DNA of 64,000 bases from an uncultured Syntrophaceae bacterium. Lineage in GTDB: Bacteria; Desulfobacterota; Syntrophia; Syntrophales; UBA8958. Position 1 is the stretch's first letter. Every line of letters begins with the position of its first letter. The notes under the pieces were generated by a model. The model had not been told where the DNA came from and made no database searches. It worked only from the letters and a program-made list of their open reading frames with translations. This document shows, piece by piece, positions 3,967 through 61,775 of this stretch. Both the position numbers and the translations under genes were made by a program. The DNA lies in the NCBI GenBank assembly GCA_964645835.1, contig CAZYDG010000080.1, forward strand, positions 1 to 64,000, in the 5' to 3' direction.

Positions 3967-6483
3967 ATGGTTCTCGATCTTGCATTGAAGTATTTGTGGT
4001 ATATCGCCCTGCTGATTCCCGCCGGTATATTGGTGTATGAGTCCGTGGTAATTGTGGGCGGTAACGAGATCGCCCTGATCGAGCGCCGGTGGTTCGGCCG
4101 AAAGATGCCCCAGGGGCGGGTTGTGGCCCTTGGCAGTGAAGTCGGTATTCAGGCACGAACCCTCGGTCCCGGTTTGCACTTTCTGATTCCGTTCATCTAC
4201 AATGCCCGGAAAAGTGTTTTTACGGAGATACTGGAAAACGAGATCGGTCTGATAGAATCCGTGGATGGATCGTCCATCCCGCCCGGCAATATCTTTGCGG
4301 CAGTCGTGGCCGGCCATAATTCCTTTCAGGACGGAGAGGCCTTTATCAAAAACGGCGGTCAGAAGGGACCGCAGATCGAGGTGCTGCCGCCCGGGAAGTA
4401 CCGCATCAATCCCTACCTGTTCAAGCTGACAAAGGGCAGGGTAACGGAAATCAAGGATTTCGAGATCGGCATCGTCGAATCCGTCGACGGCAAGGCTATT
4501 CCGGAGGGGAAGATTTTTGCGCAGGCTGTCGAAGGGCACGCATCCTTTCAGAACGGCGAGGCCTTTATTAAAAATGGCGGGCAAAAAGGTCCCCAGATTG
4601 AAATCATCCCGCCGGGAAACTATCGCATCAATCCCTATCTGTTCAAGGTTACGAAAAGCCAGGCTACCAAGATCAGTGACGGGGAAATTGGGATGATCGA
4701 GTCCGCCGATGGTTCCCCCATACCGGCCGGGCGTATCTTTGCCAATGTCGTGACCGGGCACAACTCCTTCCAACTTGGACAGGAATTCATAAAAAACGGC
4801 GGCCAGAAGGGCCCGCAGACGGAGATCCTCCCGCCGGGCGTCTATCGTATTCATCCTAACCTTTTTAAAATCACGAAGGCCCCGGCCGTGGTGATTGCCA
4901 AAGGCGAAGTCGGCATGGTGACGGCGCAAGACGGAGCACCCATCCCTATGGGACGTCTGCTGGCCCAAAGTGTGACTGGGCACTCGAATTTTGAAAACGG
5001 TGAGGCATTTCTTAAAAACGGCGGTCAGAAAGGGCCCCAGATCGATGTGCTGCTGCCGGGCACCTATCGGATCAACCTGAATCTGTTCCAGATCCAGATT
5101 GCCAAGGCGGTCGTCGTGGAGGCCAACAAGGTCGGCCTGGTCACGGCTTTGGACGGTATCCCGCTCCCGGAACGGGAATATGTCGCCAGCCCCATCACCG
5201 GTCATAACGATTACCAGGACGGCTCGTCGTTTCTCGCCAGACAGGGGCAACGCGGTCCCCAACTCGACGTGTTGCGGCCGGGAACTTACTATATCAATCC
5301 ATTCATGTTCAGTGTGGAAATCGACGATGTTGCCGTCATTGAACGCGGCCAGGTTGGCGTCGTGGTTTCAAACGTCGGGGAGGACCCCACTGAAGAGATG
5401 AAGAAACGGCTGGGTTCCACTCAGATCGGGGCTTCCGAGGAAGAAGGCAAAGAGAAGTACGTTGTTCCCAATGGATTTCGCGGCATACAGGAAGAAGTGG
5501 CCGGTCCGGGGCGCTATTACCTCAACCGGCGGGCCTTCATGATGTATATCATCGATACGACGAATATTACCATTGACTGGGACGATCAGGCGGACACCCG
5601 CTTTGACCAGCTTTCGGTTATCTCCAAGGACGGTTTTCCGATCCAGGTTGCCGTCAAGGTAGTCATTCGCGTACGGCCCGATCAGGCGCCTTACATGGTT
5701 GCCAAAGTCGGTTCCATCGATAACCTGATCCAGCATGTCATTCACCCGATGATCGACTCATCGTTTAGGAACCAGGCCTCCACGGCCTCGGCGATGAACT
5801 TCCTCCAGAGCCGATCGGAAGAACAGACAAAGGCTGAAACACGCGCCCGTGTCGATCTTGAAAGGTATCATGTGGAGTGCGTGTCGGTCCTGATCTGCCA
5901 GATCCGTCTTCCGGAGGAACTCATGCAGACCCAGACCAAACGGATCATCGCCGAACAGCAGCAGGAGATGTACAAGATGGAGCAGCGGTCCCAGGCGGAG
6001 CGGACCGAGATGGAGAAGATGCGGGCAACGGCCGATCAACAGCCCACATTGGTTGCCTCTGAAATCGCCGTGAAGGTGGCTACCCAGAAAAAGACGGAAA
6101 TGATTACCCTTGCCGAAGGCACCGCGGAGGCCAAAGCGCTTGAGGGTTCCGGTGAAGGCAAACGGCTCAAGGCCATCGGCGACGGCGAGGCCTCCAAAAT
6201 AGCTGCGGTCGGAGAAGCGACCGCTCAGGCTTACAACAAGCAGCAGCAGGCTATCGGGGAAGACGCCATCAAGCAGATCAAGATCGTGGAGCTGATCGCC
6301 GCCGCTATTGAAAACGGGAAGATCAAGATAGTCCCCGATGTCCTGGTGACCGGCGGCGGCAGTGCGGCCGACGGATTGATGGGCATGATGACGAAACTGT
6401 TGCCGGGTGTCGATATGGGGAGTTTCGTGAAAAAGGCTGGTACGGCAGCGCCGGAGACGCCCGAAAAGATGGTAAAGTCTTAA
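3967..6483 (+). CDS. Flotillin/SPFH (band 7)-like membrane protein with five tandem 74-aa internal repeats
   Basis: N-terminal TM helix. Five repeats carry the signature GHxxFQxGEAFIKNGGQKGPQIEVLPPGxYRINPYLFK. C-terminal flotillin-like coiled-coil/EA-rich region. RBS AGGAAAGGAG before ATG 3967 (GTG at 3961 also possible). Confidence 0.7.
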   Translation: MVLDLALKYLWYIALLIPAGILVYESVVIVGGNEIALIERRWFGRKMPQGRVVALGSEVGIQARTLGPGLHFLIPFIYNARKSVFTEILENEIGLIESVDGSSIPPGNIFAAVVAGHNSFQDGEAFIKNGGQKGPQIEVLPPGKYRINPYLFKLTKGRVTEIKDFEIGIVESVDGKAIPEGKIFAQAVEGHASFQNGEAFIKNGGQKGPQIEIIPPGNYRINPYLFKVTKSQATKISDGEIGMIESADGSPIPAGRIFANVVTGHNSFQLGQEFIKNGGQKGPQTEILPPGVYRIHPNLFKITKAPAVVIAKGEVGMVTAQDGAPIPMGRLLAQSVTGHSNFENGEAFLKNGGQKGPQIDVLLPGTYRINLNLFQIQIAKAVVVEANKVGLVTALDGIPLPEREYVASPITGHNDYQDGSSFLARQGQRGPQLDVLRPGTYYINPFMFSVEIDDVAVIERGQVGVVVSNVGEDPTEEMKKRLGSTQIGASEEEGKEKYVVPNGFRGIQEEVAGPGRYYLNRRAFMMYIIDTTNITIDWDDQADTRFDQLSVISKDGFPIQVAVKVVIRVRPDQAPYMVAKVGSIDNLIQHVIHPMIDSSFRNQASTASAMNFLQSRSEEQTKAETRARVDLERYHVECVSVLICQIRLPEELMQTQTKRIIAEQQQEMYKMEQRSQAERTEMEKMRATADQQPTLVASEIAVKVATQKKTEMITLAEGTAEAKALEGSGEGKRLKAIGDGEASKIAAVGEATAQAYNKQQQAIGEDAIKQIKIVELIAAAIENGKIKIVPDVLVTGGGSAADGLMGMMTKLLPGVDMGSFVKKAGTAAPETPEKMVKS
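4240..5349 (+). repeat. Five in-frame tandem 222-nt (74-aa) coding repeats inside the flotillin-like gene
   Basis: Direct comparison of translated repeat units R1-R5, with successive divergence. This repeat also creates the long antisense shadow ORF 3925-5262. Confidence 0.6.
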
Positions 6484-6613
6484 CGATATGGAGATGACAA
6501 CCATTAAGCTTTAGCCGAATCGAGTGGAGAGAAGCAGGGCATTGGCCTTCCGGGTCAAGAGATTCTTTCCATCTTTCATGTTGCAGATGGCTCCATTTGT
6601 GTGGGCGGGAAAA

Positions 6614-6706
6614 ATCCAATTCACCTCCGGGCCAATACCCCGCTTCTCTTGGTCAGACGTGCATCAAATCCCTTGGATTTTGGTGGTGGACTTGGGGGTG
6701 GACCTT
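6614..6706 (+). repeat. Roughly 95-nt conserved non-coding element, copy A, about 300 nt upstream of the atpE-like gene
   Basis: Aligns at about 70 % identity with 31382-31475 (caataccc.gct...ttggtcag.gtgcat...ttggattttggtggtgg.cttgg.ggtg). Both copies are + oriented and sit upstream of + strand energy-metabolism genes. Confidence 0.5.
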
Positions 6707-31212: not shown

Positions 31213-31381
31213 GGCCGGATCGTCTATCAGAAATGCCCATAACCTGCAAGCCCTATGGTAATCGTAATTTGTACTAAATTTCAGCCAAATCGAATGGAAG
31301 ATAGCGAGGCATTACCTCTCCGGGTCAGGGGATTTTTCTTCTATTTCACCTGCAGATGACGCCACTGAGGCGAGTTGGAAT

Positions 31382-31475
31382 ATCCCATTCACCTTCAACC
31401 AATACCCTGCTACCCCATTTCTTTGGGTCAGGGTGCATTGTAGTCTTTGCATTTTGGTGGTGGGTTGGAGGTGAT
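31382..31475 (+). repeat. Roughly 95-nt conserved non-coding element, copy B, about 240 nt upstream of hdrL
   Basis: See copy A at 6614-6706. Confidence 0.5.
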
Positions 31476-36189: not shown

Positions 36190-36627
36190 ATGGCCGAAGA
36201 TTCAACAAACAAGGAATGGGTACCGAAAATCGTTGCCATTGTCTGCAATTGGTGTACTTACGCGGGCGCCGATCTGGCTGGTATCAGCAGAATTCAGTAT
36301 CCGCCGAATGTACGCATCATGCGCGTTCCCTGCACGGGAAGGATCAACCCTTTTTACATCGTGAAAGCCTTGCAGACGGGAGCCGACGGCGTTCTCGTAT
36401 CGGGTTGACACCCCGGTGAATGCCACTATATTTCGGGAAATCTGGTGGCGCGCCGCAAGTTTGCGACGTTAAAAAGTTTCCTGGACTACATCGGTGTGGA
36501 AGGTGACAGGACCATTTTTACATGGGTGTCAGCTTCTGAAGGAGAGCGTTTCGCCAATGTCATCAAAGGCGTGACGGCGAAGGTAAAAGCCCTCGGTCCG
36601 CCCGCCCGGCTGGTTAAGTCTTTGTAA
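36190..36627 (+). CDS. mvhD: MvhD (methyl-viologen-reducing hydrogenase delta subunit) homolog with in-frame UGA, predicted selenocysteine
   Basis: ORFs 36169-36408 and 36445-36627 share one frame, separated only by TGA 36406-36408. The translation VSG-U-HPGECHY aligns the UGA with the conserved Cys of the MvhD GCHxGDCHY motif. N-terminal CNWC and C-terminal [10 protein letters not shown] motifs are conserved. RBS GGAGGGA. Confidence 0.8.
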
Positions 36628-49286: not shown

Positions 49287-50252
49287 TCAAAGCGTGATTT
49301 TTCCTCGGCAGGAACTTCCCATTCCTGCGGTGCAGCCGTAACAATGTTCCCCGGTGACGATCTGGCGGGTGGCGAGTTTGGCCAGGTTAAATTGTGAAAT
49401 ATGCTCCGGGGCACCGTGATTCACGGTCATGCCCAGCATCTGGTTGAAGTCGCAATCATAGAGCTTACCGTCCCAGGCAACAGACAGGGTGGTTTTGCAC
49501 ATGACGTTCGAAAGGGTCTCCCGATTGAAGGCATTGACCAAAGTCGCCATATAGTCTTCATAATTGCCGGTTCTTTGAAGATAGGCCAAATACCGGCCAA
49601 TGGGCATGTTCGTAATGCAAAAAAGATTGTTGAAAGAGATACCGAATCTTTCTTTGAGCGCTTTCCGGTAATGGTCTTCGAGACTTTCCTGTAAGCCTGG
49701 AAGATAGGCCCCGCTGGGATTATAGACCAGATTCAGGATCAGTCCATTATCGCCCTGCCCATACCCTTTTTTATTGATTTTCAGAAGGCAGTCAATTAGC
49801 CGAGAATAGACGCCTGCACCTCGTTGCCGGTCTGTTGTCTTTAAATCCATATGGGGAAAGGATATGATGATTTCTACGCGATAACGGGCATAGAGATCAA
49901 GAAGATGGGCATATGCTTTTTCAAGAAGAATCACGCCGTTTGTACGTACAAGCAATCGGCGGCCCAAAGCAGCGCATTGTTCAAGAAACCAGGTGAAATC
50001 GGGGTGCATCTCCGGGGTTCCGCCCGTGATGTCGATAGCCGGAATGGCATGACGTCTCAAAACCTGAAGGCACATCTCCATCACTGACCGCGGCATGAGT
50101 TCCAGCCGCCCCGGACCCGCTTCGACATGGCAATGCCTGCATTCCAGGTTGCACCGGTATCCAAGGTTGATCTGGAATACATCGATTCCTGCCGCTTTCA
50201 AAGGGCTGTCCGACATCTGTTCGAAGGATGGATGCATGGAGCTTCCGTCCAT
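49287..50252 (-). CDS. Radical SAM / Cys-rich-domain protein of the ArsS-like family
   Basis: CNLECRHC (CxxxCxxC) rSAM motif. C-terminal Cys-rich tail (CDFNQ...EHCYGCTAGMGSSCRG). Translationally coupled to the upstream AhpD-like gene. Confidence 0.8.
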   Translation of the reverse strand: MDGSSMHPSFEQMSDSPLKAAGIDVFQINLGYRCNLECRHCHVEAGPGRLELMPRSVMEMCLQVLRRHAIPAIDITGGTPEMHPDFTWFLEQCAALGRRLLVRTNGVILLEKAYAHLLDLYARYRVEIIISFPHMDLKTTDRQRGAGVYSRLIDCLLKINKKGYGQGDNGLILNLVYNPSGAYLPGLQESLEDHYRKALKERFGISFNNLFCITNMPIGRYLAYLQRTGNYEDYMATLVNAFNRETLSNVMCKTTLSVAWDGKLYDCDFNQMLGMTVNHGAPEHISQFNLAKLATRQIVTGEHCYGCTAGMGSSCRGKITL

Positions 50253-50254
50253 TG

Positions 50255-50587
50255 TTACATTTCCTTTTTCTTAACGATTTTTCTCATTTGCGTGGAATGA
50301 GCCAGAACGACGCCGGCAGTGATGGCCGCGCCTACATGAACGGATTCCATCATTTCCTCTTGGGAAATGCCAAGAGAAAGGCACTCATTTGTATAAGCGT
50401 CGATGCAATAAGGGCACCTCTGCGTTGTGGACACGGCCAGGGCGATCAGCGCTTTTTCCCTTGCCGTCAGGGCGCCGGCTTTCATCGCCTCGCCATAGTA
50501 TGCAAAATACATCTCCCCCAAGGCCGGTGCATATTCGCCGATATTTGTGAAATCCGTCAGGTCTTTTGACTCATAATAGTCAGACAT
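50255..50587 (-). CDS. AhpD-like / carboxymuconolactone decarboxylase family protein (CxxC peroxidase-like)
   Basis: 110 aa. CMD-family signature TQRCPYCIDAY. RBS AAGGAAA. Confidence 0.75.
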   Translation of the reverse strand: MSDYYESKDLTDFTNIGEYAPALGEMYFAYYGEAMKAGALTAREKALIALAVSTTQRCPYCIDAYTNECLSLGISQEEMMESVHVGAAITAGVVLAHSTQMRKIVKKKEM

Positions 50588-50622
50588 ACAGCCGTTTCCT
50601 TTCCATGTCTTGTCCCGTTATG

Positions 50623-51243
50623 TCAGGGACGCAGGAGCCGTGCAGCACCTGCCATGGTTTCGACAATATCGTACATGTTTGAAATGTGCCCCACGGCAAT
50701 TTGGTCTCCAAGGCTGAAATAGTTGATGCAGGTCCCGCAAACCAGAATCTCTGTCCCGGCCTTTTCCAATGACTGCAAATCATCCAGGACAGTCGAGTCT
50801 CCAGTAGCCAGCTTGACGCCGGCATTATAACAAATAATGGTATCGGGCAGAGGTTTCAATTGTAGAAGGGTATGGATAAAGCTTCGTATCAGAACATCCC
50901 CCAGAGTATCATCACCTCGTCCCATGCGGTTGTCCGAAAGGACTACAACAAGGGCGCCCGTTGCCTTTTCAGTAGAGCAGGCAAGCTCTTCAGCAAAGGC
51001 CTCGGCATCCATCTGGTGCTCCTCCGACGCTGCTGTTCGGGCCAAAAAAATTTCCCGGATACCGTTTCCTCTATCAGTTACAGAGACAGTGCAGGCCATT
51101 TTAACAGCGAGTCGCCGAATATTCTCCACTGCGGCGTCATTATCGACGAGGATGGTCATGGCTTGGTTGTCTTCGATGGCCTTTTTCGCCAAAATTACAG
51201 GTTGCGGGCAGGCAAGCCCTCGGGCGTCAATGGTTACCGGCAT
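50623..51243 (-). CDS. yedF: YedF-like protein (N-terminal TusA/SirA-like CPxP domain fused to a DsrE/DsrF-like domain)
   Basis: ARGLACPQPV TusA motif, followed by a DsrE-like domain with conserved Cys (ILVCGTC). Confidence 0.75.
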   Translation of the reverse strand: MPVTIDARGLACPQPVILAKKAIEDNQAMTILVDNDAAVENIRRLAVKMACTVSVTDRGNGIREIFLARTAASEEHQMDAEAFAEELACSTEKATGALVVVLSDNRMGRGDDTLGDVLIRSFIHTLLQLKPLPDTIICYNAGVKLATGDSTVLDDLQSLEKAGTEILVCGTCINYFSLGDQIAVGHISNMYDIVETMAGAARLLRP

Positions 51244-51337
51244 AGGTTATGTCCTTTTATCAGTTGCTTGATAGCAACATTATTTCATGATCCTTTCTCA
51301 CCTGCAAGGTCTTTCAGCAACAGATCTTTCAGTAATA

Positions 51338-51865
51338 GAATTGAGATGTGCGGGGCATTGGTCTTACGGTTCAGGTGATTTTCCCCTATTTCAATTGCAG
51401 TTTACGGTAGTTATACCAGTTGGGGAAAATCATATTTACCTCCAGACCAAACCCCGCCCATCCTGTACAGATTTTATCAAAGTATTTGTGGTTCTGTGGT
51501 GTATTACAGATGGAATTGAGATGTGCGGGGCATTGGTCTTTACGGTTCAGGTGATTTTCCCCTATTTCAATTGCAGTTTACGGTAGTTATACCAGTCGGG
51601 AAAAATCATATTCACCTTCAGACCAAAACCCCGCCCATCCTGGACAGATTTTTTCAAAGTATTTGTGGTTCTGTGGTGTATTACAGATGGAATTGAGATG
51701 TGCGGGGCATTGGTCTTACGGTTCAGGTGATTTTCCCCTATTTCAATCGCAATTAACAGCAGTTATACCAGTCGGGAAAAATCATATTCACCTCCAGACC
51801 AAAACTCCGCCCATCTTGGGCAGCTTTTATTAAAGTCTTTTGGGCTTTTGTGGTGTATTCGGAAA
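51338..51865. repeat. Three tandem direct repeats of about 176 bp, each with nested inverted repeats (predicted extended hairpin)
   Basis: Units begin at 51338, 51513 and 51690 (gaattgagatgtgcggggcattggtc...). Within each unit GCGGGGCATTGGTC pairs with GACCAAACCCCGC, and GATTTTCCCC pairs with GGGGAAAATC. Confidence 0.8.
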
Positions 51866-51922: not shown

Positions 51923-53269
51923 TCACGCGATTTTGTTGCTTCTTCTCCAGATACCCTGATTTTGTGCTGCTTTGATCAGGTCGTCACGCTTGTCGGGATG
52001 GGCGATGCTGATGAGCAGGGCCGCCCGTTCCCATGTGGATTTCCCTTTAAGGTTGACCATGCCGAATTCTGTCACGATATAGTGCACAACCGTATATGGA
52101 ACCGTAACGATGGCTCCGGGCGTCAGTGTGGGGACAATTCGTGATTTGATTTCTCCACTTTTCTTATTAAGTTTCGTCGCGCTCATGCAAATGAAAGCCT
52201 TTCCTCCCTTAGAGAGATAGGCGCCGTAAGTGTAGTCGAATTGCCCGCCCGTCCCGGATATCTGCCTTACGCCTGACGACTCGGAACAGACTTGACCGTA
52301 AAGATCGATTTCCACTGCGTTGTTGATGGCCACCATGTTGTTGTTCATGGCGATGCGCGAGGGATTATTGGTATAGTCGCAAGGATATATTGCACAAGTG
52401 GGATTATGATCGAGAAATTCGTAGAGCTTGGAACTTCCCATGGCGAAAGTATAGACCATTTTACCTGTATCCACAGACTTCTTCGAATTGTTGACTCGAC
52501 CTGCCTGACACATGTCGACAAACGAGTCACAAAGCATTTCCGTATGGACGCCTAGATCTTTCAAGTCGGATTGAGCAATCATCATCCCGACCGCATTCGG
52601 CATGCCGCCGATACCAAGTTGAATGCACGAGCCATCATGGATCTCATCGACGATAAATTTGGCAATCTTGCTGTCTTCCTCGCTCATCGGGAGTGCTGGT
52701 ACACTGAAGAGCGGCTGGTTGTCTGATTCGACGATATGGTGCACTTCGGAAATATGCAGCGCTTCGCTAAAGCCGCCATAGCAGTAAGGAACAGCATCGT
52801 TCACTTCAACGATAATCTTCTTTGAGCGACGGCTGGTGGCCTTGGACGACGAGCATGATGGCCCGAAATTGAAGTAGCCGCTCTTGTTCATCGGGGCAAC
52901 TTTCACGATGAAAACGTCTGACTGGCAGAACCCATTGTCCCAGTAGGAAGCGCCTTCAGAATAGAGAAGGGGAATGTAATTGCAAAGTCCTTTGTCGTGA
53001 AGCATGCGATCACCACCGCTGAAATGCCAGCAGTTGTAGTTGAACTTCTCCCGCGTGGGATCCGCCACTGCGACGGCTGCCAGACCCGGATAAGTGACTC
53101 CGCACACATTGACATCGGTTAATTCATCGGCTCGTTTGGCCAGAAACGGATCAAGATATGTCGGAGAGCAGGCAAAGTGACCGTAATTCACCCAATCGCC
53201 GGATTTTACGATGCCAACAGCGTCCTCGGCAGTAGTCAGTTTATTCTTGTATTCTTCCATGTAATTCAT
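51923..53269 (-). CDS. abfT: 4-hydroxybutyrate CoA-transferase (acetyl-CoA hydrolase/transferase family)
   Basis: About 448 aa. Family-typical N- and C-terminal CoA-transferase domains. RBS AAGGAGA before ATG 53269 (the ORF track starts further upstream). Confidence 0.85.
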
Positions 53270-53282
53270 GGCATATTCTCCT

Positions 53283-54017
53283 TTAAGGTTTGATGAACGG
53301 TTTTGGTACGGGAATAATTGCTTTTCCGTAAGCCGTGTTAACCATGATCGCACCGGCATGATAGAGCGAACTGAGACCGATGAATACAAAGCCATAAGCG
53401 ATGATCAACTTTGTCGTCTTGACATCGATGATACTGAACCATCCAGTATCCAGACCCGCAAGGAGGAATAGCAGGATATCGGCCAAAACAAATCCTGAAA
53501 AGAAAACCCAACTTCCCCGAGCATAGCATGGGGTCGCAACGGTCAGAAATCCTGCGCCTGCCATCCACATCCAGCCTTCAACATGCACCGCTTTCTGAAT
53601 CATGGCGCCGACGGCTGGACCGACACTAGACATAGCCGTCTTGATCTGGTCGGGAGACAGCATGTCCGGCTTCAGGCCGGCAGCGGCAGCGGCCGCTTCC
53701 AGGGCCGCCTTGGCGGCTTTAGGTCCAAATATGAAGGAAATCATATACCATTTCATAAAGACGCTCATGGCTGCCGCCAACATGAAAAAAGCGCTGAAGA
53801 AAAGAAAAACGTTGCCGCCTGCAATGTTATGATCTTTCATCTCCACAATGCCTACAATAAACTGTACGATAAAACCGGCTACGAGCCAGCAGGCCAGAAG
53901 CGGTAGACCGTTTACATCCACTAATCCGAGAAAATAGGCCGCAAATCCGAAAACGGCAATTGCCAGCGCTCCTAAACCCGCCGGAGCCGGTGATGCAAAA
54001 CTGTGATCTTGAGACAT
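53283..54017 (-). CDS. GPR1/FUN34/YaaH (SatP)-family acetate/succinate transporter
   Basis: Six TM helices. N-terminal (N/S)PAPxGL motif ([14 protein letters not shown]). RBS AAGGGGGG. Confidence 0.75.
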
Positions 54018-54134
54018 AAAACCCCCCTTATTTGATTGTTTGATGATGCTGTCAAAACCATTGTCCAACTTTAATATGCCGTATCCATGATATTGCCGCG
54101 CCCTGCATCACCTCCTTCTATAACGGATCGAGAC

Positions 54135-55592
54135 TCAGTCGTTGATATCAGCCAGAGCCTTCGCCCATTTGATCTTCTGCGGAAGCATGCCCAGACGCTG
54201 GTACATGACACGCTGACTCTGAGGAGGACCAGCACCGTGCATGCTTTCGACCAGGCATGTCCCGCCAGTCATGTTCTCGATGAGCCGCAGGATCTTCATC
54301 CTAGACAAGACCGGTATACCGGCGACTCCGGCCATGTATTTTTCGACAAACTTTCCTATTTCGGGGCTCTTGAAATCATTGGCAAACGGCATGGTCGCCA
54401 TGATCCCGCCGGCCACATCATGGGCCAGGCGGGAGATCTCATAGATGTTGCGGGTTATGTTATGCTTCGTACAATTTGCGAGGATCGGATCTGGATAGAA
54501 AGAGCCGCATGCGGTCTTCGATCCCATGGCCGAACAGGCAATGGAACCTGAATAGACCGTCTCCGCCAGGTGCATCATCTCGATGATCTTGTCCTTGACA
54601 TGAGAGGCGTTTGCCGTGCCCTGATACTGGGTAGCCAAAGCTGTGGCCCCGATAATGATATCCGACACGCCACCCTTGCAGCCTCCGTAATTCTGCCGAT
54701 GGAAGGTGGCGAAGCGCTCGACAAGAAGGCCGCTGAAGGCAGTCTCGCCGCACATGAAGACCCGTTCCCAGGGAACAAAGACATCCTCGAAGACGACAAG
54801 CGCCTCGCCGCCCACAACGCCGAATTCTTTATTGCCGGCATCGATTCCATCTTCGAGCTTCCTTTCCTCATTTGTCTGGCGACCGAAGATCAGCGTGATT
54901 CCAGGCGAATTGAGTGGAATGGCGGCGGCCACGGCATAGTCTTCATCGCCCCGGCCCATGTTCTGCGTGGGCATGATGAGAATTTCGTGACTGTTCACGG
55001 CGCCCGTCTGGTGCGCCTTCGCCCCGCGGATCACAATGCCGTTTTCGCGCTTCTCGACGATGCGGGTGAAGAGATCCGGATCTGCTTGTTCACCGGGACG
55101 TTTGGAGCGGTCGCCCTTCGGATCGGTCATGCCGCCCACCACCATGCGGTTCTCTTCCTGGATCATCTTCAGGAAAGCGACAAAACGGCGGAAGTAATCG
55201 GTCTTGCATGCAGCGTCAATCTCGTAGGTGGTCATATAGAGGGCATTCATGGCATCAAAGCCGACACATCGCTGATAGCAGCTCCCCGTTTCATGGGAGA
55301 TGAGACGCAGCATCTGGACTTTCCTCATTAGGTCATCCACCGACTGATGGATATGCGTAAATCGACTGATTTTTTTGCCCGTCAAGTGGCTGGTCGCCGT
55401 CAGCAGATCTTCGGTTTCCGGATTCAGCGCAAGCTCATAGGTTTTTGCGGCGGCGTTGATATGGGGAATGAAGGCCGGATGGGCCGTCACGTCGTCAATC
55501 TTCTTTCCGTTGTAATAGACATTCAAATGCTGTTCCTGCAAACTTCTAATGTAATCTTCTTTCGTCTTGATCATGATCTCCTCACTTTTCAT
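54135..55592 (-). CDS. abfD: 4-hydroxybutyryl-CoA dehydratase / vinylacetyl-CoA delta-isomerase
   Basis: 485 aa HpaB-fold flavoprotein with Cys-rich [4Fe-4S] ligands (SCYQRCVG ... C). Typical AbfD length. Confidence 0.88.
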   Translation of the reverse strand: MKSEEIMIKTKEDYIRSLQEQHLNVYYNGKKIDDVTAHPAFIPHINAAAKTYELALNPETEDLLTATSHLTGKKISRFTHIHQSVDDLMRKVQMLRLISHETGSCYQRCVGFDAMNALYMTTYEIDAACKTDYFRRFVAFLKMIQEENRMVVGGMTDPKGDRSKRPGEQADPDLFTRIVEKRENGIVIRGAKAHQTGAVNSHEILIMPTQNMGRGDEDYAVAAAIPLNSPGITLIFGRQTNEERKLEDGIDAGNKEFGVVGGEALVVFEDVFVPWERVFMCGETAFSGLLVERFATFHRQNYGGCKGGVSDIIIGATALATQYQGTANASHVKDKIIEMMHLAETVYSGSIACSAMGSKTACGSFYPDPILANCTKHNITRNIYEISRLAHDVAGGIMATMPFANDFKSPEIGKFVEKYMAGVAGIPVLSRMKILRLIENMTGGTCLVESMHGAGPPQSQRVMYQRLGMLPQKIKWAKALADIND

Positions 55593-57388
55593 GTCATAAA
55601 ATGCGTTTCTTCAATCTTCATCAGGGACCGGTCATGTCTGTTGATGGCCGCAATTCTGCCATGGACTGCGGGAAGAATAGTGTTGGTATAGAACTGTGCC
55701 GTCAGGATTTTCGCCTCGTAATAGTTTTCGGTTTCGGTGTCTTGAGCCTGTTTGAGGCAGGCAATTGCGGCCTGCCAGATAAGTATCCACCCAATGACCA
55801 CGTCGCCTAAGATTTCCAGATAGGGTGTTGCCCAGGAATAGGCCAGATAGGCGTCCTCGGTTGAGGAGGCAGCGATCAGCGAATCCGTCAGGGTCGCTAT
55901 GGCCGCAACCGCATGCCCCAACTCCTGGGCAGAATCCCACAGTTTATCTATCTCCATTGCCGATAAAACAGTCTCTTTCATACGGTCCACAAGCAGCGCA
56001 AAGGCCCGCCCTTTCTTCATCCTGATTTTCCTGCCGAAGAGATCCATCGCCTGGATGCCATTTGTGCCTTCGTAGATGGAGGTGATCTTGCTGTCCCGGG
56101 CGCACTGCTCAACCTTGTACTCATGGCAGTAGCCGTAGCCGCCGTGAACCTGGATGGCGCGGACGCAGGTATCGAAACCGCGGTCGGAGCAATAAGCCTT
56201 GCAGATGGGTGTCAGGATTTCGACCAGATCGTGCCATTCGCTCCTGTCGGCATCGTTTTCGGCCACCGCCTCCTTGTCCATGCAGTAGGCCGTAAAGAGG
56301 ATGAGTGCCCTCATGCCTTCCGAATGGGCCTTCATCCAGACAAGATTTCTCCGGACGTCGGGATGATTGATGATGGCCGCCTGCGAGGTGTCCTTTGCGC
56401 CGAATGTTGGTCCCTGGCGTCTTTCGGAGGCAAAATGCAGCGTGTGATGATAGGCCGCCGATGCCTGGGCCATGCCCTGCATGCCGACGAGAATGCGCTG
56501 CTCGTTCATCATGTGGAACATAACCTGGATGCCCTTGCGTTCCGGTCCCAGAAGCTCTGCTTGACAGTGGCCCCGGTCGCCGAAGTTGAGCACGGCAGTC
56601 GCTGAACCTTTCATGCCCATTTTGTGCTCGATGCCGGAACAGACGATGTCATTATCAGCGAGCATTGTCCCCGTCTCATCCAGTCTGATCTTGGGAAGGA
56701 CAAAACACGTTAGGCCTCCGGTTCCCTCCGGATCGCCTTCAATCCGCGCCAGAAGAATATGGATAATATTCTCCGTCAGGTCCTGCTCTCCTCCCGTAAT
56801 GAAGATCTTGCTGCCCGTGATACTGAAGGAGCCGTCACCGTTGCGCACCGCTTTTGTGCGTATGGAGCCCACGTCGGAACCGGCCTGGGCTTCCGTAAGA
56901 TCCATGACACCGGCATACCGGCCCTCATAGAGGGGAACCATGTATTTTCTCTTCTGCTCTTCTGTGCCATAGAGCTCGATGACCTTGGCGGCGCTGTGGG
57001 TCAGGCCCGTATAGCCCATCAATGAATGGTTGGCGGCAAAGAACATCATGCTGCATGCATAGTGGAGTGAGCGAGGGGCATTCTGCCCGCCGACGCTGTA
57101 ATCCTCCGCCAAGGACATCCAGCCGCCCTCGCAGAACTTCTGATAAGGCGCCCGGTAGGGCTCGGGAATCATGACCCGTCCCTCTTTCCAGGCACAGCCG
57201 ATTTTATCACCAGGGCCGTTGGCAGGTGCGAAATCATTCTCGGCGAGTTTTTCGGCTGCCGTCAGAATCATCTCGAATGTTTCCCGCGAATGATCGTCAA
57301 AACGCGCCTCCCGGCAGAGTTCCTCAATGTGCAACTGTTCATAAAGAATAAAGCGGGTATCCCGCAGATCATTTAAATTGCTTGTCAT
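55589..57388 (-). CDS. Long-type acyl-CoA dehydrogenase (about 600 aa, with C-terminal extension)
   Basis: ACAD N, middle and C domains (YAGVMDLTEAQAGSDV, FITGGEQD...). C-terminal helical extension. ATGA overlap with abfD. Confidence 0.85.
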   Translation of the reverse strand: MTSNLNDLRDTRFILYEQLHIEELCREARFDDHSRETFEMILTAAEKLAENDFAPANGPGDKIGCAWKEGRVMIPEPYRAPYQKFCEGGWMSLAEDYSVGGQNAPRSLHYACSMMFFAANHSLMGYTGLTHSAAKVIELYGTEEQKRKYMVPLYEGRYAGVMDLTEAQAGSDVGSIRTKAVRNGDGSFSITGSKIFITGGEQDLTENIIHILLARIEGDPEGTGGLTCFVLPKIRLDETGTMLADNDIVCSGIEHKMGMKGSATAVLNFGDRGHCQAELLGPERKGIQVMFHMMNEQRILVGMQGMAQASAAYHHTLHFASERRQGPTFGAKDTSQAAIINHPDVRRNLVWMKAHSEGMRALILFTAYCMDKEAVAENDADRSEWHDLVEILTPICKAYCSDRGFDTCVRAIQVHGGYGYCHEYKVEQCARDSKITSIYEGTNGIQAMDLFGRKIRMKKGRAFALLVDRMKETVLSAMEIDKLWDSAQELGHAVAAIATLTDSLIAASSTEDAYLAYSWATPYLEILGDVVIGWILIWQAAIACLKQAQDTETENYYEAKILTAQFYTNTILPAVHGRIAAINRHDRSLMKIEETHFMT

Positions 57389-57461
57389 TTCAATCTTCCT
57401 CTTTTCTATTCGACACTCCAGTTCATGTAGAAACTGTGATGACTTCGGAATTATGATTTGG

Positions 57462-58673
57462 TCAATCGACGCGGATGACGGCGGCATCTCCCTGGGCCAA
57501 GCCTCCGCAGATGCCGCAGGCACCGATGCCTCCGCCACGCCGCCGCAGTTCGTAGACCATGGTCAGAAGGATCCGTGCGCCGCTGGCGCCGACGGGATGC
57601 CCCATGGCAATGGCGCCGCCATTGGGGTTGGTCTTTGCCGCCACTGTCTCCCATCGGTTCTCATAGATATCTGCCAGGAGTTTTGTCGAGACAAGGGGCA
57701 CAGCAGCAAATGCCTCATTTATTTCAACTACATCCACTTGATCGAGAGTTAAATGGGCCTTTGCCAGCGCACGTTGAATAGCTAAGCCGGGCACCTCCGC
57801 CATCCGTCGGGGCGCCTTGGCTATGCTGGCCATGGATATAATTGTTGCCAGGGGTTTGGCGCCAAGGGCTTTTGCTTGAGATCTTGTCATGACGATTACT
57901 GCCGATGCTCCGGCATCGAGACCGGGGGCGTTTCCCGCTGTAACGGTGGGACTTCCATAAACGGTTTTCAGCTTTGCCAATCCATCCAGCGTTGTATCGG
58001 CCTTGGGAAAATCATCGGCGGCAAATATCTTGGCTGGTCCTCGTTTCTGTGGAATCTCCACCGGCACGATTTCATCGGCGAACTTGCCTGCCGCTTTCGC
58101 AGTTTGATATTTACGTTGGGAATCGAGCGCCCATCCGTCTTGCATCTCCCTGGTAATCCCGTATTCAAGGGCCACCTCCCCGGCATCGGCAGCGAGTATA
58201 CCGAAACCGTTGTACTGGATGGGATTCAAGTGGTCGACCATGGCCAGAGGCGTAAGTCCGCGCCCCCATCGGTGGCCATTTATCACCACCGGAGTATTGC
58301 TCATATTCTCCGCCCCAACGGCCATGCAGGTCTTCGCCTCGCCGAGACGAATCGCCCGGTAGGCGAGCTGCACACAGACGAGAGATGAGCAACAGGCGCG
58401 ATCCACCGTGAGCGAGATCAGATCTTCCGGCAGGCCGGCTTTCAGGAGGGCTTGACGCCCGATGACATTATAATTGAGTGCAGCTTCGGACTGGATGCAC
58501 ATGCCGTAGTAGAGTTCGTCCAGATCGGCACCTTTAAGCCCCGCCTGGCCGAGGCATGCCTTGATGGCGGCAATGCCGAGTTCCATGCTGTGCATTTCGC
58601 GCAGATCGCCACCAAATCGGGAAAACGGCGTTCTCACACCGCTGACAATAACGATTTCATCTTTCTTATCCAT
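57462..58673 (-). CDS. Acetyl-CoA C-acetyltransferase (thiolase II)
   Basis: Active-site regions VDRACCSSL, GHPVGASG and CGGLAQG. Confidence 0.9.
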   Translation of the reverse strand: MDKKDEIVIVSGVRTPFSRFGGDLREMHSMELGIAAIKACLGQAGLKGADLDELYYGMCIQSEAALNYNVIGRQALLKAGLPEDLISLTVDRACCSSLVCVQLAYRAIRLGEAKTCMAVGAENMSNTPVVINGHRWGRGLTPLAMVDHLNPIQYNGFGILAADAGEVALEYGITREMQDGWALDSQRKYQTAKAAGKFADEIVPVEIPQKRGPAKIFAADDFPKADTTLDGLAKLKTVYGSPTVTAGNAPGLDAGASAVIVMTRSQAKALGAKPLATIISMASIAKAPRRMAEVPGLAIQRALAKAHLTLDQVDVVEINEAFAAVPLVSTKLLADIYENRWETVAAKTNPNGGAIAMGHPVGASGARILLTMVYELRRRGGGIGACGICGGLAQGDAAVIRVD

Positions 58674-58763
58674 TGATACCATCTCTTTCTACTATAATAT
58701 AAATTTTATACTAATATCTTAATATATGGCGATGACACACCGGTCGTTCGGATTAAGATTTCC

Positions 58764-59531
58764 TCACCAGATTGTATAGCCGCCGTCGATTGTCAGTACG
58801 GCGCCTGTCATATAGCCGGAAGCTTCCGAGGCGAGAAACATGGCCGCCCCAACTATTTCTTCGGGCTTCCCCAAGCGCTTGAGGGGGATTTTAAACCGGA
58901 GAAATTTCTTATGGGTCTCATCTTCCTGCTGTTGCCGTGTCATTTCCGTTTCAAAGAAGCCTGGTGCAATGCAGTTGACATTAATGCCGAATGGCGCCCA
59001 TTCAAGTGCCAGAGCTCGCGTCATCTGAGCAATGCCTGCCTTGGTGACGCAGTATGGCATCGTGACGTTTGCTGCCATGGTCCCCAGGATTGATCCGATA
59101 TTGATAATCTTGCCGCTATGACGCTCAACCATGCCCGCGCCCACAGCCTTGGAGAGGAGAAAGGCAGACTTCAGGTTTGTATCGATCACATCTTCCCAAT
59201 CCTCAACAGTCGTATCGAGGGCATACTTCATCGGAGCGATGCCGGCGTTGTTGATTAGAATATCCACTCGGCCGTATATGGAGAGGACCTTCTGTACCAT
59301 TGCGTCAATGCTTTCGGGGCTCTTGACATCAGTGGAGACGGCAATCGCCTTACCGCCCTTCTGAGTGATGTCATTCGCCGTTTCTTCAATCAGCGCCTTT
59401 GACCGGCTTGTCACCACGACCTTTGCGCCGCCCTCTCCGAGAGCCAGAGCCATCTCTCGGCCAAGCCCCTTGCTGCCGCCCGTCACGATGGCCACCTTGT
59501 CCGATGTCTTGAATCTTTCGAGATAATCCAT
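58764..59531 (-). CDS. SDR-family oxidoreductase (3-hydroxyacyl-CoA / 3-oxoacyl reductase-like)
   Basis: TGGSKGLG Rossmann motif, NNAG, catalytic YxxxK (YCVTK). Start taken at MDYLERF. Confidence 0.85.
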   Translation of the reverse strand: MDYLERFKTSDKVAIVTGGSKGLGREMALALGEGGAKVVVTSRSKALIEETANDITQKGGKAIAVSTDVKSPESIDAMVQKVLSIYGRVDILINNAGIAPMKYALDTTVEDWEDVIDTNLKSAFLLSKAVGAGMVERHSGKIINIGSILGTMAANVTMPYCVTKAGIAQMTRALALEWAPFGINVNCIAPGFFETEMTRQQQEDETHKKFLRFKIPLKRLGKPEEIVGAAMFLASEASGYMTGAVLTIDGGYTIW

Positions 59532-59576
59532 AACTTGCCCGGCAATTATCCTTTCCTTCGATTTGCCGTTCAATAT

Positions 59577-59592
59577 TGCACTGCTTGTGCCA
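59577..59592 (-). promoter_or_regulatory. Sigma-54 (-24/-12) promoter candidate for the SDR-thiolase-ACAD-abfD-satP-abfT operon
   Basis: The minus strand reads TGGCACaagcaGTGCA (consensus TGGCAC-N5-TTGCA, one mismatch), about 50 nt upstream of ATG 59531. Confidence 0.5.
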
Positions 59593-59689
59593 ACACGCAC
59601 GACGAGCAGGCCATGCCATATAAATCGTTGAATATATTTTAAAATTATTAAAGCTTGCATTTAGATTCAATCTGTGATGTTTCAATAAC

Positions 59690-59729
59690 TGTCCCATAGC
59701 GGGACGGTATCGTGTCCCGATACGGAACA
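59690..59729. promoter_or_regulatory. Two inverted-repeat enhancer-like sites (TGTCCC-N5-GGGACG and TGTCCC-N5-GGAACA), likely UAS for the adjacent sigma-54 activator
   Basis: Palindromes at 59690-59706 and 59713-59729, about 100-140 bp upstream of the sigma-54 promoter and just upstream of the regulator gene. Confidence 0.45.
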
Positions 59730-59750
59730 TAATAGAGGAGATATTTAGCC

Positions 59751-61775
59751 ATGACGACACCAGGCATTCCTGTTACTGCTACACCTGCCTTTGCCGGGCC
59801 GGAATCCCTAATGCTCAACTATGATGATAAATTTCAGAAAACTCTAAGAGAATGGGATAGATACATAAAAGGAGACCTGGAGATTGACACCCTTGTCATT
59901 CCCTATGAGATTCTTGAATCGTGGCGCCGATGCAGAGCTTATGGTGTAAATCCGCGGCGTGCTAAGATCGGCCAGGCGCTATCGGAGGCTGAATTAGCGG
60001 ATATCCTGGACGATAACGAGGAATTGATCAGTATCAGCCTCCCTTTCATGACGCATCTCTACCGCTTTGTGGAGGGTTCGGGATTCATTGTCGCGCTTTT
60101 CAACCATGAAGGATATCTCCTGGAAATTATGGGCGATGCACTTGATGTATCCCATGTCCGAACGGGGAATTTCGTTCCCGGTGCTTCCTGGTGCGAGGAG
60201 AGGGCGGGAACAAACGGTATCGGTACACAGCTCAAGGTGCGAAAGCCTCTCCAGATTTTCGGATGCCAGCACTTTTGCCGCAATTTTCATAAAGAGACGG
60301 CATCGAGCGCGCCCATCTTCAGCCCCGGGGGCGAGTTTCTCGGCGGTCTAGTCCTTACCGGACGCTATTTGCGGGCAACCCCTCACACTCTGGGTATGAC
60401 GGTCGCCGCAGCGGTGGCAATTGAAAATGAACTGCGCATCAATAAAGCTCTGGCCGAGGTCCAGATTGCAAGCAGCTACCAGAAGACGGTAATTTCCTCC
60501 ATTCCCGAGGCCCTGATCGCCATCGACAACGTCGGATGCATCTCCCTCATAAACGACAATGCTCTGAAGATGTTCTCCCTGTCACGGCAGGAAGTCACTG
60601 GCCGTCCGATTCGTGAGGTGTTCGGTGCGGGAAATGACAATTTCTTCCGCAAGCTCGAAAACAACCTTACGCTGACGGACTCGGAAGTACATATCGCGAC
60701 GGTGAACGGCGCTAACGACTACACGCTGACCTTGAATCCAATCCTGTCCCAAAATGGAACGGTAATTGGCAGGATATTGATTCTAAACGAATATCGGCGA
60801 GCAAAGACCCTTGTTGCCAAAATGATCGGTGCCAAAGCGAATTTTCGTTTTGAGGATATCCATGGCGTCGATCACGGCTTCATGGAAACGGTGAAGCATG
60901 CGCGCCTTGCTTCCCGGACGAGCTCGAATGTTTTGCTCCTTGGAGAGAGCGGAACAGGGAAGGACATCTTCGCCCAGGCGATCCATAATGCCAGTAATCG
61001 ACGGAACGGTCCCTATATCGCCATCAACTGCGCAGCCATTCCACGGGACTTGATTACCTCCGAACTTTTCGGCCATACGGAGGGCGCCTTTACCGGTGCC
61101 CGCCGGGGCGGCAGCCAAGGCAAATTCGAGCTTGCGGATGGCGGGACGATCTTTCTCGACGAGATCGCCGAGACTCCCCTGGAGTTGCAAGCCGTGCTTC
61201 TCAGGGTTATCGAGGACAAATCGATTGTCCGTATTGGGGGAACGCACGTCCGCCCCGTCGATGTGCGGATCATCGCTGCCACAAACAAGGATCTTCTGGA
61301 AGCGGTCCGGAAGGGAAGTTTCCGACACGATCTCTATTACCGCGCCAATGTCCTTACCATCCGCATCGCTTCCCTGCGTGACAGAAAGGATGATATCCCC
61401 CTCCTTGTAGATGCCTTCATCAAGAAGGTTTCCAGAACCCTGGGAAAGAAGATCGAAGACATCGATGAAAAGGTGATCGAGGCTTTTATGAACTATTCCT
61501 GGCCCGGAAATGTACGGGAACTACAGAATATCATCGAGAGAATGATGAATTTTGCCACAGGCAACAAGCTCACGGCAGATCTTATTCCCGAGGAGCTTAT
61601 CCAACCGCCGCGCCTTTTTACTGTAGGTGATACTTTTGAGTCGGCGCGGGACATGGAATACCGTATGATCAAGAAGATGCTCGTCCTCAATATTCCGAAG
61701 ATGGATATGGCAAAGAAGCTGAAAATCTCCCGAAGCTCGCTTTACCGTAAACTGGAGAAGTATGGGCTGCTGTGA
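59751..61775 (+). CDS. Sigma-54-dependent transcriptional activator with N-terminal sensory domains (AcoR/PrpR-like)
   Basis: Central AAA+ domain ([15 protein letters not shown]-finger), C-terminal Fis HTH, and about 330 aa of N-terminal GAF/PAS-like region. Divergent from the catabolic operon. Confidence 0.88.

Follow-up and report, generated by a model that had tools for sequence, protein, structure and literature searches.

The genes described here lie in the window, a 64,000-nucleotide stretch of DNA from an uncultured Syntrophaceae bacterium (GenBank assembly GCA_964645835.1, contig CAZYDG010000080.1, positions 1 to 64,000). Within the window, the interval 49287-51865 carries an operon of three minus-strand genes encoding a YedF-type protein, a small CxxC protein of the AhpD family and an ArsS-type enzyme of the radical S-adenosylmethionine (SAM) class. 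In the order of their reading these are:

50623-51243, minus strand: yedF, a TusA-DsrE fusion of 206 aa, the first gene of the operon

50255-50587, minus strand: a CxxC gene of the AhpD/CMD family ('arsenosugar biosynthesis-associated peroxidase-like protein'), 110 aa

49287-50252, minus strand: an arsS-type radical SAM gene with a C-terminal Cys-rich DUF3641 domain, 321 aa

The original prediction, made from the letters of the window and its open reading frames (ORFs), had described these genes as tightly coupled, and the ORFs agree, with a gap of 35 nt between yedF and the ahpD-like gene and of 2 nt between the ahpD-like stop codon and the arsS start. An AAGGA ribosome-binding site precedes the yedF ATG, and a convergent DUF5329 gene ends 26 nt past the arsS stop codon. 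The two short gaps, together with the same gene order in another locus (L169), indicate that yedF, ahpD and arsS are probably co-transcribed. In L169 a YedF that is 83 % identical is followed by an AhpD that is 92 % identical, and the contig ends inside ahpD. Identical proteins were found in GCA_030920355.1 (Syntrophus sp. SKADARSKE-3), where YedF is annotated as 'hypothetical protein CSYNP_00775'.

Profile searches supported the earlier family calls for all three proteins, each of which scored above its curated NCBIfam cut-off. YedF matched TIGR03527 with 210.6 bits (cut-off 110) and, in Pfam, PF01206 (TusA), with a weak match to PF02635 (DsrE; 18.4 bits against 22.7). It carries C12 within GLACPQP in the TusA-like CPxP domain and C169-G-T-C172 in the DsrE-like CGxC domain. 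The AhpD-like protein scored 148.3 bits against TIGR04169 (cut-off 120), matched PF02627 and has its CxxC at C58-P-Y-C61; its gene lies directly upstream of arsS. ArsS scored 412.7 bits against TIGR04167 (cut-off 300), covering positions 2-303 of the 303 in the profile, and matched PF04055 and PF12345/DUF3641 (186 bits for PF12345). The radical SAM motif CX3CX2C is present as C34-x3-C38-x2-C41, while the C-terminal residues C252, C267, C304, C307 and C315 are kept in 99-100 % of 168 homologues. C315, in GSSC, matches the GxxU selenocysteine (Sec) site given for the TIGR04167 family (PMC13188914).

ArsS loci were collected by an alignment-based scan of one genome per species and by a metagenome scan, which together listed at least 160 loci. 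These were mostly from Bacteroidota, Nitrospira and Acidobacteriota, at approximately 50 % identity, and the anaerobe clade was represented among the matches listed by L002, L005 and L085 only. Counts per 96 loci given here refer to the well-flanked loci, i.e. the listed loci flanked on either side by at least 3 kb. An AhpD-like gene was located directly upstream of ArsS in 64 of 80 listed genome loci and was present in 81 of the 96. Neighbour clustering and representative scans identified the other usual partners as the TIGR04282 and TIGR04283 'arsenosugar biosynthesis glycosyltransferases', ArsM and purine nucleoside phosphorylase (PNP), with DUF2064/TIGR04282 in 46, ArsM in 34, GT2/TIGR04283 in 29 and PNP in 25 of the 96. 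The partner ArsM is of the arsenosugar type (NF038099, 559.6 bits against 400) and the cassette of aerobes has the order AhpD-ArsS-TIGR04282-PNP-ArsM(NF038099)-TIGR04283; Nitrospira loci have ArsM-ArsS without AhpD. Synechocystis arsS is co-transcribed with arsM (bioRxiv 10.1101/2022.09.23.509062). Its product, the only member with a characterized adenosylation activity, adds the 5'-deoxyadenosyl radical to dimethylarsenite (DMAs(III)) to give 5'-deoxy-5'-dimethylarsinoyl-adenosine (DDMAA) (PMC13598754). The AhpD-ArsS pair is thus the curated, widespread core of the arsenosugar cassette and is kept across phyla. Since a described system already includes two of the three genes, the earlier statement that the module could not be assigned to a described pathway is too strong. 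The pair is already known; its link with YedF and other sulfur- or selenium-type genes in anaerobes appears to be new.

No homologues of ArsM, PNP, TIGR04282/04283, rhodanese or DUF3047 were detected in the 64-kb window by tblastn of cassette representatives (nothing below E = 0.5), and no ars-type Pfam families were found within +/-10 kb of the operon. This agrees with the earlier observation that no arsM or other arsenic gene is nearby. A protein search returned thousands of ArsS homologues; Syntrophales and other Deltaproteobacteria supplied the best of them, at 60-75 % identity. The neighbourhoods of these relatives were read singly and then re-scored by tblastn, giving eleven distinct loci whose ArsS proteins are 53-79 % identical to the window or L166 protein. 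Their gene arrangements are as follows:

L165 and L085: GT2 and DUF2064 divergent from MauE/DoxX - rhodanese - Fe-S/CCG(-DedA) - AhpD - ArsS - DUF3047

L082/083: the core of L165 and L085 with an extra 618-aa rhodanese

L166/167: the core of L165 and L085, then YedF and a double-cubane reductase

P0004 locus: the core of L165 and L085, then YedF and an ArsR-family helix-turn-helix (HTH) protein

L174/175: DUF2064 - GT2 - MauE - rhodanese - CCG/DedA - AhpD - ArsS - DUF3047 - class V aminotransferase

L176/177: rhodanese - ? - Fe-S/CCG/DedA - YdjY - YdjY - ? - AhpD - ArsS - YedF - DUF3343

L005 (Smithellaceae): rhodanese, MauE, DUF3343 and YedF divergent from AhpD - ArsS - GT2 - DUF3047 - DUF2064

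L168: AhpD - ArsS - DUF3047

L084 and L002: the AhpD - ArsS pair only

No ArsM or PNP was present in any of the eleven loci, in which the sole methyltransferase Pfam match was a generic 242-aa protein located 5.4 kb upstream in L002. Rhodanese and DUF3047 were each found in eight of the eleven, and in two and three, respectively, of the 96 well-flanked loci. The GT2 and DUF2064 proteins of the relatives are true members of TIGR04283 and TIGR04282. Their 170-aa rhodanese has a signal peptide and, of all family models, matches best the N-terminal part of the one for the TsoB rhodanese selenoprotein; their DUF3047 proteins have a signal or transmembrane segment. The L174 aminotransferase belongs to the TIGR01977 cysteine-desulfurase family (474.9 bits against 377), with the selenocysteine lyase SclA as second-best match, and is 67 % identical to the aminotransferase that follows YedF-DUF3343 in L170. 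In the anaerobe lineage, YedF, DUF3343, the SclA-like cysteine desulfurase and rhodanese stand beside AhpD-ArsS in the place of ArsM. The window operon looks like a reduced, Syntrophus-lineage form of this anaerobe-specific variant, because all other cassette genes are missing from its 64 kb, and this differs from the self-contained module of the original prediction. Full-text literature searches found no description of YedF or DUF3343 with ArsS or of the anaerobe cassette. A third type of context was observed in the deltaproteobacterial locus L002 (3513-9425), where MoeA and a MOSC-domain protein precede AhpD-ArsS; further upstream, the generic methyltransferase is accompanied by a C_GCAxxG_C_C protein and another radical SAM enzyme.

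YedF occurs within the cassette at L166/167, the P0004 locus, L176/177 and L005, in three positions other than that of the window. DUF3343 is found in L176 and L005 and the SclA-like enzyme in L174, so that five of the eleven ArsS-sampled relatives have at least one member of the YedF/DUF3343/SclA-like set, in four different arrangements. The suggestion that the trio is conserved as a unit was thus borne out in part: the YedF link recurs, in these loci and in L169, while its position varies and the unit is not fixed. Among the 96 well-flanked loci, YedF was detected once, in the Smithellaceae locus L005. Syntrophales orthologues that are 72-73 % identical to the window YedF are found in the canonical YedF-DUF3343-aminotransferase order at L170-L173. 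YedFs linked to ArsS are 64-85 % identical among themselves and 71-77 % identical to those of the canonical group, and a dedicated ArsS-linked paralogue was rejected since the identity matrix shows a single orthologous group. For the same reason YedF appears to be a general carrier that is recurrently placed beside the cassette; we infer the carrier role in the window operon as well. Lin et al. 2015 (PMC5322559) linked the YedF/DUF3343/Sec-lyase-like set to SelD-dependent selenium use and found members of the YedF family to co-occur with SelD and Sec lyase.

Neighbours of the arsenic type (ArsM, PNP) and of the sulfur/selenium type (YedF, rhodanese, MauE, DUF3047) did not occur together at any of the 96 well-flanked loci, 44 of which had the arsenic type only, three the sulfur/selenium type only and 49 neither. 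With three loci carrying neighbours of the latter type, a Fisher test of this mutual exclusion on the blind scan loci alone gave p = 0.25.

Our preferred reading, held tentatively and at somewhat less than even confidence, is that the operon represents an anaerobe variant of the cassette in which a thiol or persulfide relay feeds an ArsS-type 5'-deoxyadenosyl transfer, with selenium or sulfur somewhat likelier than methylated arsenic as the heteroatom. We infer the following scheme for what YedF and the AhpD-like protein do, which heteroatom is used and what product is made. The [4Fe-4S] cluster bound by the CX3CX2C motif of ArsS would cleave SAM, and the resulting 5'-deoxyadenosyl radical would be added to a soft, thiol-bound heteroatom to form a carbon-heteroatom bond, the type of reaction catalysed by Synechocystis ArsS. 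The CxxC of the AhpD-like protein may serve as the obligate thiol/disulfide partner of ArsS, reducing the substrate or swapping its thiol ligands. YedF would present the heteroatom on its cysteines, either the TusA-type Cys or the DsrE-type CGxC. The predicted product is an intermediate of the 5'-seleno- or 5'-thio-5'-deoxyadenosine type, which in the relatives may be elaborated by the TIGR04282 and TIGR04283 enzymes, and the DedA-CCG fusion, MauE/DoxX and the exported rhodanese could provide membrane uptake or export.

The modest edge given to selenium or sulfur over arsenic arises because the supply genes of the cassette mobilize sulfur or selenium instead of methylating arsenic. Rhodanese and DedA proteins are reported to be able to handle selenium. 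Together with the statistical link between YedF and SelD (PMC5322559), this favours selenium over sulfur. The original prediction had also pointed to a Sec-containing MvhD in the window, and the MvhD/FlpD-like ORF at 36190-36624 on the plus strand does have an in-frame TGA (SG-U-HPGEC), opposite which a homologue from L082 with 86 % identity has a Cys. This protein is likely a selenoprotein, which indicates that the organism decodes Sec. A bolder extension, which we consider unlikely, is that in anaerobes the Syntrophales-type cassette does for selenium (or sulfur) what the arsenosugar pathway does for arsenic. In such a pathway the SclA-like lyase would mobilize selenium, YedF and DUF3343 would carry it and the ArsS homologue would form a C-Se bond, opening a new route to seleno-ribose or seleno-lipid metabolites of which the window operon would be the minimal core.

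A number of observations weigh against the preferred relay reading. The window ArsS is 50-55 % identical to orthologues that adjoin ArsM, nine Cys positions are common to the window-type and ArsM-linked groups, and consistent differences between the groups were restricted to six positions (L36/Q, E44/D, V57/T, H177/Y in most relatives, Y183/F and G219/S). With the nine cysteines kept and only these six positions discriminating, no sign of a changed substrate is apparent in the ArsS sequence. TIGR04167 is curated by NCBIfam as an ArsS equivalog, and the relatives retain two 'arsenosugar' glycosyltransferase-like genes. The local absence of ArsM is weak evidence, given that 62 of the 96 well-flanked loci, many of them of the aerobe type, also lack it, and arsM could be encoded elsewhere in the source genome. 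An ArsS-ArsM fusion in a sulfate reducer is cited by PMC12124457 (its reference 35), and NF041537, an ArsM/AhpD-domain fusion, is listed among selenoproteins (PMC13188914); this model is weakly matched by the AhpD-like protein of the window. With regard to YedF, six of the eleven related loci have no member of the YedF/DUF3343/SclA-like set, and the YedF of L166 may belong with the downstream double-cubane reductase instead. The P0004 locus was chosen via a YedF match and L169 was found through YedF, so neither is a blind observation. The genomes of the sampled relatives are phylogenetically related, and all of the evidence is genomic context.

Several of these points would be explained by ordinary arsenosugar-type chemistry, in which ArsS adenosylates dimethylarsenite supplied by an ArsM encoded elsewhere, the AhpD-like protein keeps the arsenic trivalent and thiol-bound, and YedF, rhodanese and the desulfurase-like enzyme act as As(III) thiol chaperones or as sulfur donors for thio-arsenicals or thio-arsenosugars under sulfidic conditions. 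The TIGR04167 and TIGR04169 scores, both above cut-off, the shared Cys positions, the retained TIGR04282 and TIGR04283 genes, the NF041537 match and the fusion cited for the sulfate reducer are all consistent with arsenic as the substrate, as is the ArsR-family HTH gene that follows YedF at the P0004 locus. However, neither ArsM nor PNP occurs in any of the eleven related anaerobe loci or in the 64-kb window, the pyridoxal phosphate-dependent SclA-like desulfurase and DUF3343 are given no obvious role in arsenic metabolism, and accessories of the arsenic and sulfur/selenium types were mutually exclusive in the well-flanked loci. We regard the arsenic explanation as credible, with a confidence modestly below that in the relay reading.

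Alternatively, YedF may be a mere neighbour that takes part in general selenium trafficking for selenoproteins, its adjacency to AhpD-ArsS resulting from local rearrangement or from loose co-regulation of redox genes without a shared pathway. The YedFs linked to ArsS and those that accompany DUF3343 and the SclA-like enzyme are one orthologue, GCA_026388335.1 has its ArsS and YedF sets on separate contigs (L165 and L172), and the double-cubane reductase after YedF in L166 is a known type of YedF neighbour (PMC5322559). Together with the loci that lack the YedF set and the signs of rearrangement beside the window yedF, namely a repeat array and a sigma-54 activator placed otherwise than in L169, these observations fit YedF as a mere neighbour. 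Against this, YedF, DUF3343 and the SclA-like enzyme are found in the cassette in four architectures, on the same strand and with short gaps; the only YedF among the 96 well-flanked loci belongs to the Smithellaceae; and the 35-nt and 2-nt spacing with the identical order in L169 points to co-transcription. We consider a mere neighbour improbable.

The part of the interval upstream of yedF (51244-51865), which was not mentioned in the original prediction, is non-coding for the three genes and contains a palindrome and a repeat array; diverged solo copies of the repeat occur elsewhere in the window:

51263-51278, no strand assigned: a perfect 6+4+6 palindrome, GTTGCTatcaAGCAAC, approximately 20 nt upstream of the yedF start and flagged as a stem-loop

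51335-51865, no strand assigned: three tandem hairpin repeats of approximately 176 nt, between the upstream CoA-transferase gene and yedF (Tandem Repeats Finder period 176, 3.0 copies, 92 % matches)

6519-6695 and 31289-31467: diverged solo copies of the repeat, in the same orientation as the array

The palindrome could be an operator for a dimeric regulator. No sigma-70-like site was detected on the minus strand upstream of yedF by a promoter scan, and no sigma-54 -24/-12 element was seen by eye in the 90 nt before the yedF start. Each 176-nt unit forms an imperfect hairpin of approximately 125 nt (minus-strand RNA fold z = -4.7), and a few compensatory changes between the copies keep the stem paired. 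The orientation is the same for every copy, regardless of how the neighbouring genes run. A tandem riboswitch or a conserved yedF leader was rejected as an explanation for the array: the repeat had no Rfam match, copies are present at two unrelated sites in the window, the orientation is single and L169 lacks the array, its yedF beginning 14 nt beyond the end of a sigma-54 activator gene. No copies were found in 2.18 Mb of other loci. The repeat is probably a genome-specific dispersed element, either of the repetitive extragenic palindrome (REP) or miniature inverted-repeat transposable element (MITE) type or a small-RNA family, and the array probably lies outside the ArsS module though inside the interval. 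Minus-strand repeat units contain terminator-like hairpins, which could insulate yedF from the upstream CoA-transferase operon.

This upstream operon, which lies in the region 51923-61775 together with a sigma-54 activator gene, is a minus-strand operon of the acyl-CoA/4-hydroxybutyrate type that runs into the repeat array and yedF. It comprises genes for a short-chain dehydrogenase/reductase (SDR), a thiolase, an acyl-CoA dehydrogenase, an HpaB-like dehydratase, a YaaH-like membrane protein and the CoA-transferase. The activator gene, of the MimR_N/PAS type (59751-61775, plus strand), is divergent from it. In L169 (323-3030) an orthologue of this activator with 66 % identity shares the strand of yedF and sits directly upstream of it. 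The different placement implies a rearrangement in either the window or the L169 lineage.

It is very improbable that the substrate is some other soft species or the role non-biosynthetic, for example to detoxify a persulfide or a metalloid that reacts with thiols (Te, Sb), or to handle its redox state, with a radical SAM step other than heteroatom adenosylation: the accessory set (DedA, YdjY, AhpD-like, rhodanese) does resemble the Escherichia coli ydjXYZ-ynjA...ynjE cluster, the PDB sequence search gave neither a solved structure nor a residue-level mechanism for the ArsS family and the C-terminal domain of ArsS is poorly modelled, but the only characterized family member carries out heteroatom adenosylation and sequence conservation with the characterized clade is high.

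The same PDB sequence search found no solved structure of full-length YedF. An AlphaFold2 model of ArsS (41 sequences) had a mean predicted local distance difference test score (pLDDT) of 76.5 and a predicted template modelling score (pTM) of 0.81. The radical SAM core was confident, while the Cys-rich tail (residues 304-321) had a pLDDT below 50 and the model is thus uninformative on the heteroatom-binding site. The nearest solved folds were the SPASM/twitch enzymes SuiB, SkfB, BlsE, DesII, anSME and PqqE, at 13-18 % identity (Foldseek E 1e-10 to 1e-6, TM approximately 0.5-0.6). Assignment of the enzyme as anSME, PqqE or another SPASM maturase was rejected, as hidden Markov model (HMM) scores were low and the similarity is at the level of the fold only; all NCBIfam matches other than TIGR04167 scored at most 40 bits against cut-offs of 105-850, in line with its earlier assignment to the ArsS type.

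Should ArsS homologues of selenium-using anaerobes adenosylate selenium or sulfur that YedF, DUF3343 and an SclA-like enzyme deliver, the result would be a first concrete biochemical function for YedF and DUF3343, a new organoselenium pathway in syntrophs and sulfate reducers, and more than one function within the large curated ArsS 'equivalog' family, all of which is now annotated as arsenosugar biosynthesis. To our knowledge, the known routes of selenium into small molecules use selenophosphate-dependent enzymes, for example the SenABC selenoneine pathway. Literature searches found no radical SAM C-Se bond-forming step of the kind proposed here. If arsenic is the substrate, the cassette would represent an undescribed sulfur-relay-dependent synthesis of organoarsenic compounds in anoxic habitats. 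Arsenic methylation and thiolation in such habitats affect rice and groundwater. With three genes and no membrane proteins, the window operon is practical for heterologous expression and in vitro assay.

Four known systems can be compared with the operon and its relatives. With the SPASM/twitch enzymes, the likeness is that the C-terminal Cys-rich extension of ArsS probably holds an auxiliary cluster. The difference lies in the low HMM scores (at most 40 bits against cut-offs of several hundred) and in the C-terminal domain, which is DUF3641 with no recognized SPASM domain. The structural likeness in the model thus fits an auxiliary-cluster domain rather than membership of these families. The E. 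coli K-12 cluster ydjXYZ-ynjABCDE (L178, 1833401-1840774) encodes DedA, YdjY, DedA, the AhpD-like YnjA, an ABC transporter and the periplasmic rhodanese YnjE, a mix of DedA, YdjY, AhpD-like and rhodanese genes that is also seen among the accessories of the anaerobe cassette. L176 has two YdjY-domain genes (4719-6146), the product of one being 56 % identical to E. coli YdjY. However, the E. coli cluster is without a radical SAM enzyme and YedF, and none of the accessory genes (DedA, YdjY, rhodanese) is present in the window. By analogy, the resemblance hints at a possible envelope thiol or chalcogen module shared by the E. coli cluster and the anaerobe cassette. Orthology of the window AhpD-like protein with YnjA was rejected, as the two share 21 % identity over 47 residues.

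The YedF/DUF3343/Sec-lyase-like set is represented in the window by a YedF that belongs to TIGR03527 and has both signature motifs. It differs in that the window yedF heads an AhpD-ArsS operon, and neither DUF3343 nor a Sec-lyase-like desulfurase gene adjoins it there. Of the known systems, the arsenosugar cassette comes closest, and the YedF/DUF3343/Sec-lyase-like set is second. The window shares with the arsenosugar cassette a full-length ArsS and AhpD-like protein, both above cut-off, in the same order and tightly coupled; its ArsS keeps the motif for radical SAM chemistry as well as the C-terminal cysteines that are conserved, and its close relatives also hold TIGR04282 and TIGR04283. In contrast, ArsM, PNP, TIGR04282 and TIGR04283 are missing within the 64 kb and YedF is added, and the relatives add rhodanese, MauE/DoxX, the Fe-S/CCG-DedA fusion, DUF3047, DUF3343 and the SclA-like desulfurase. 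The two systems thus share a core pair and differ in their supply and tailoring genes.

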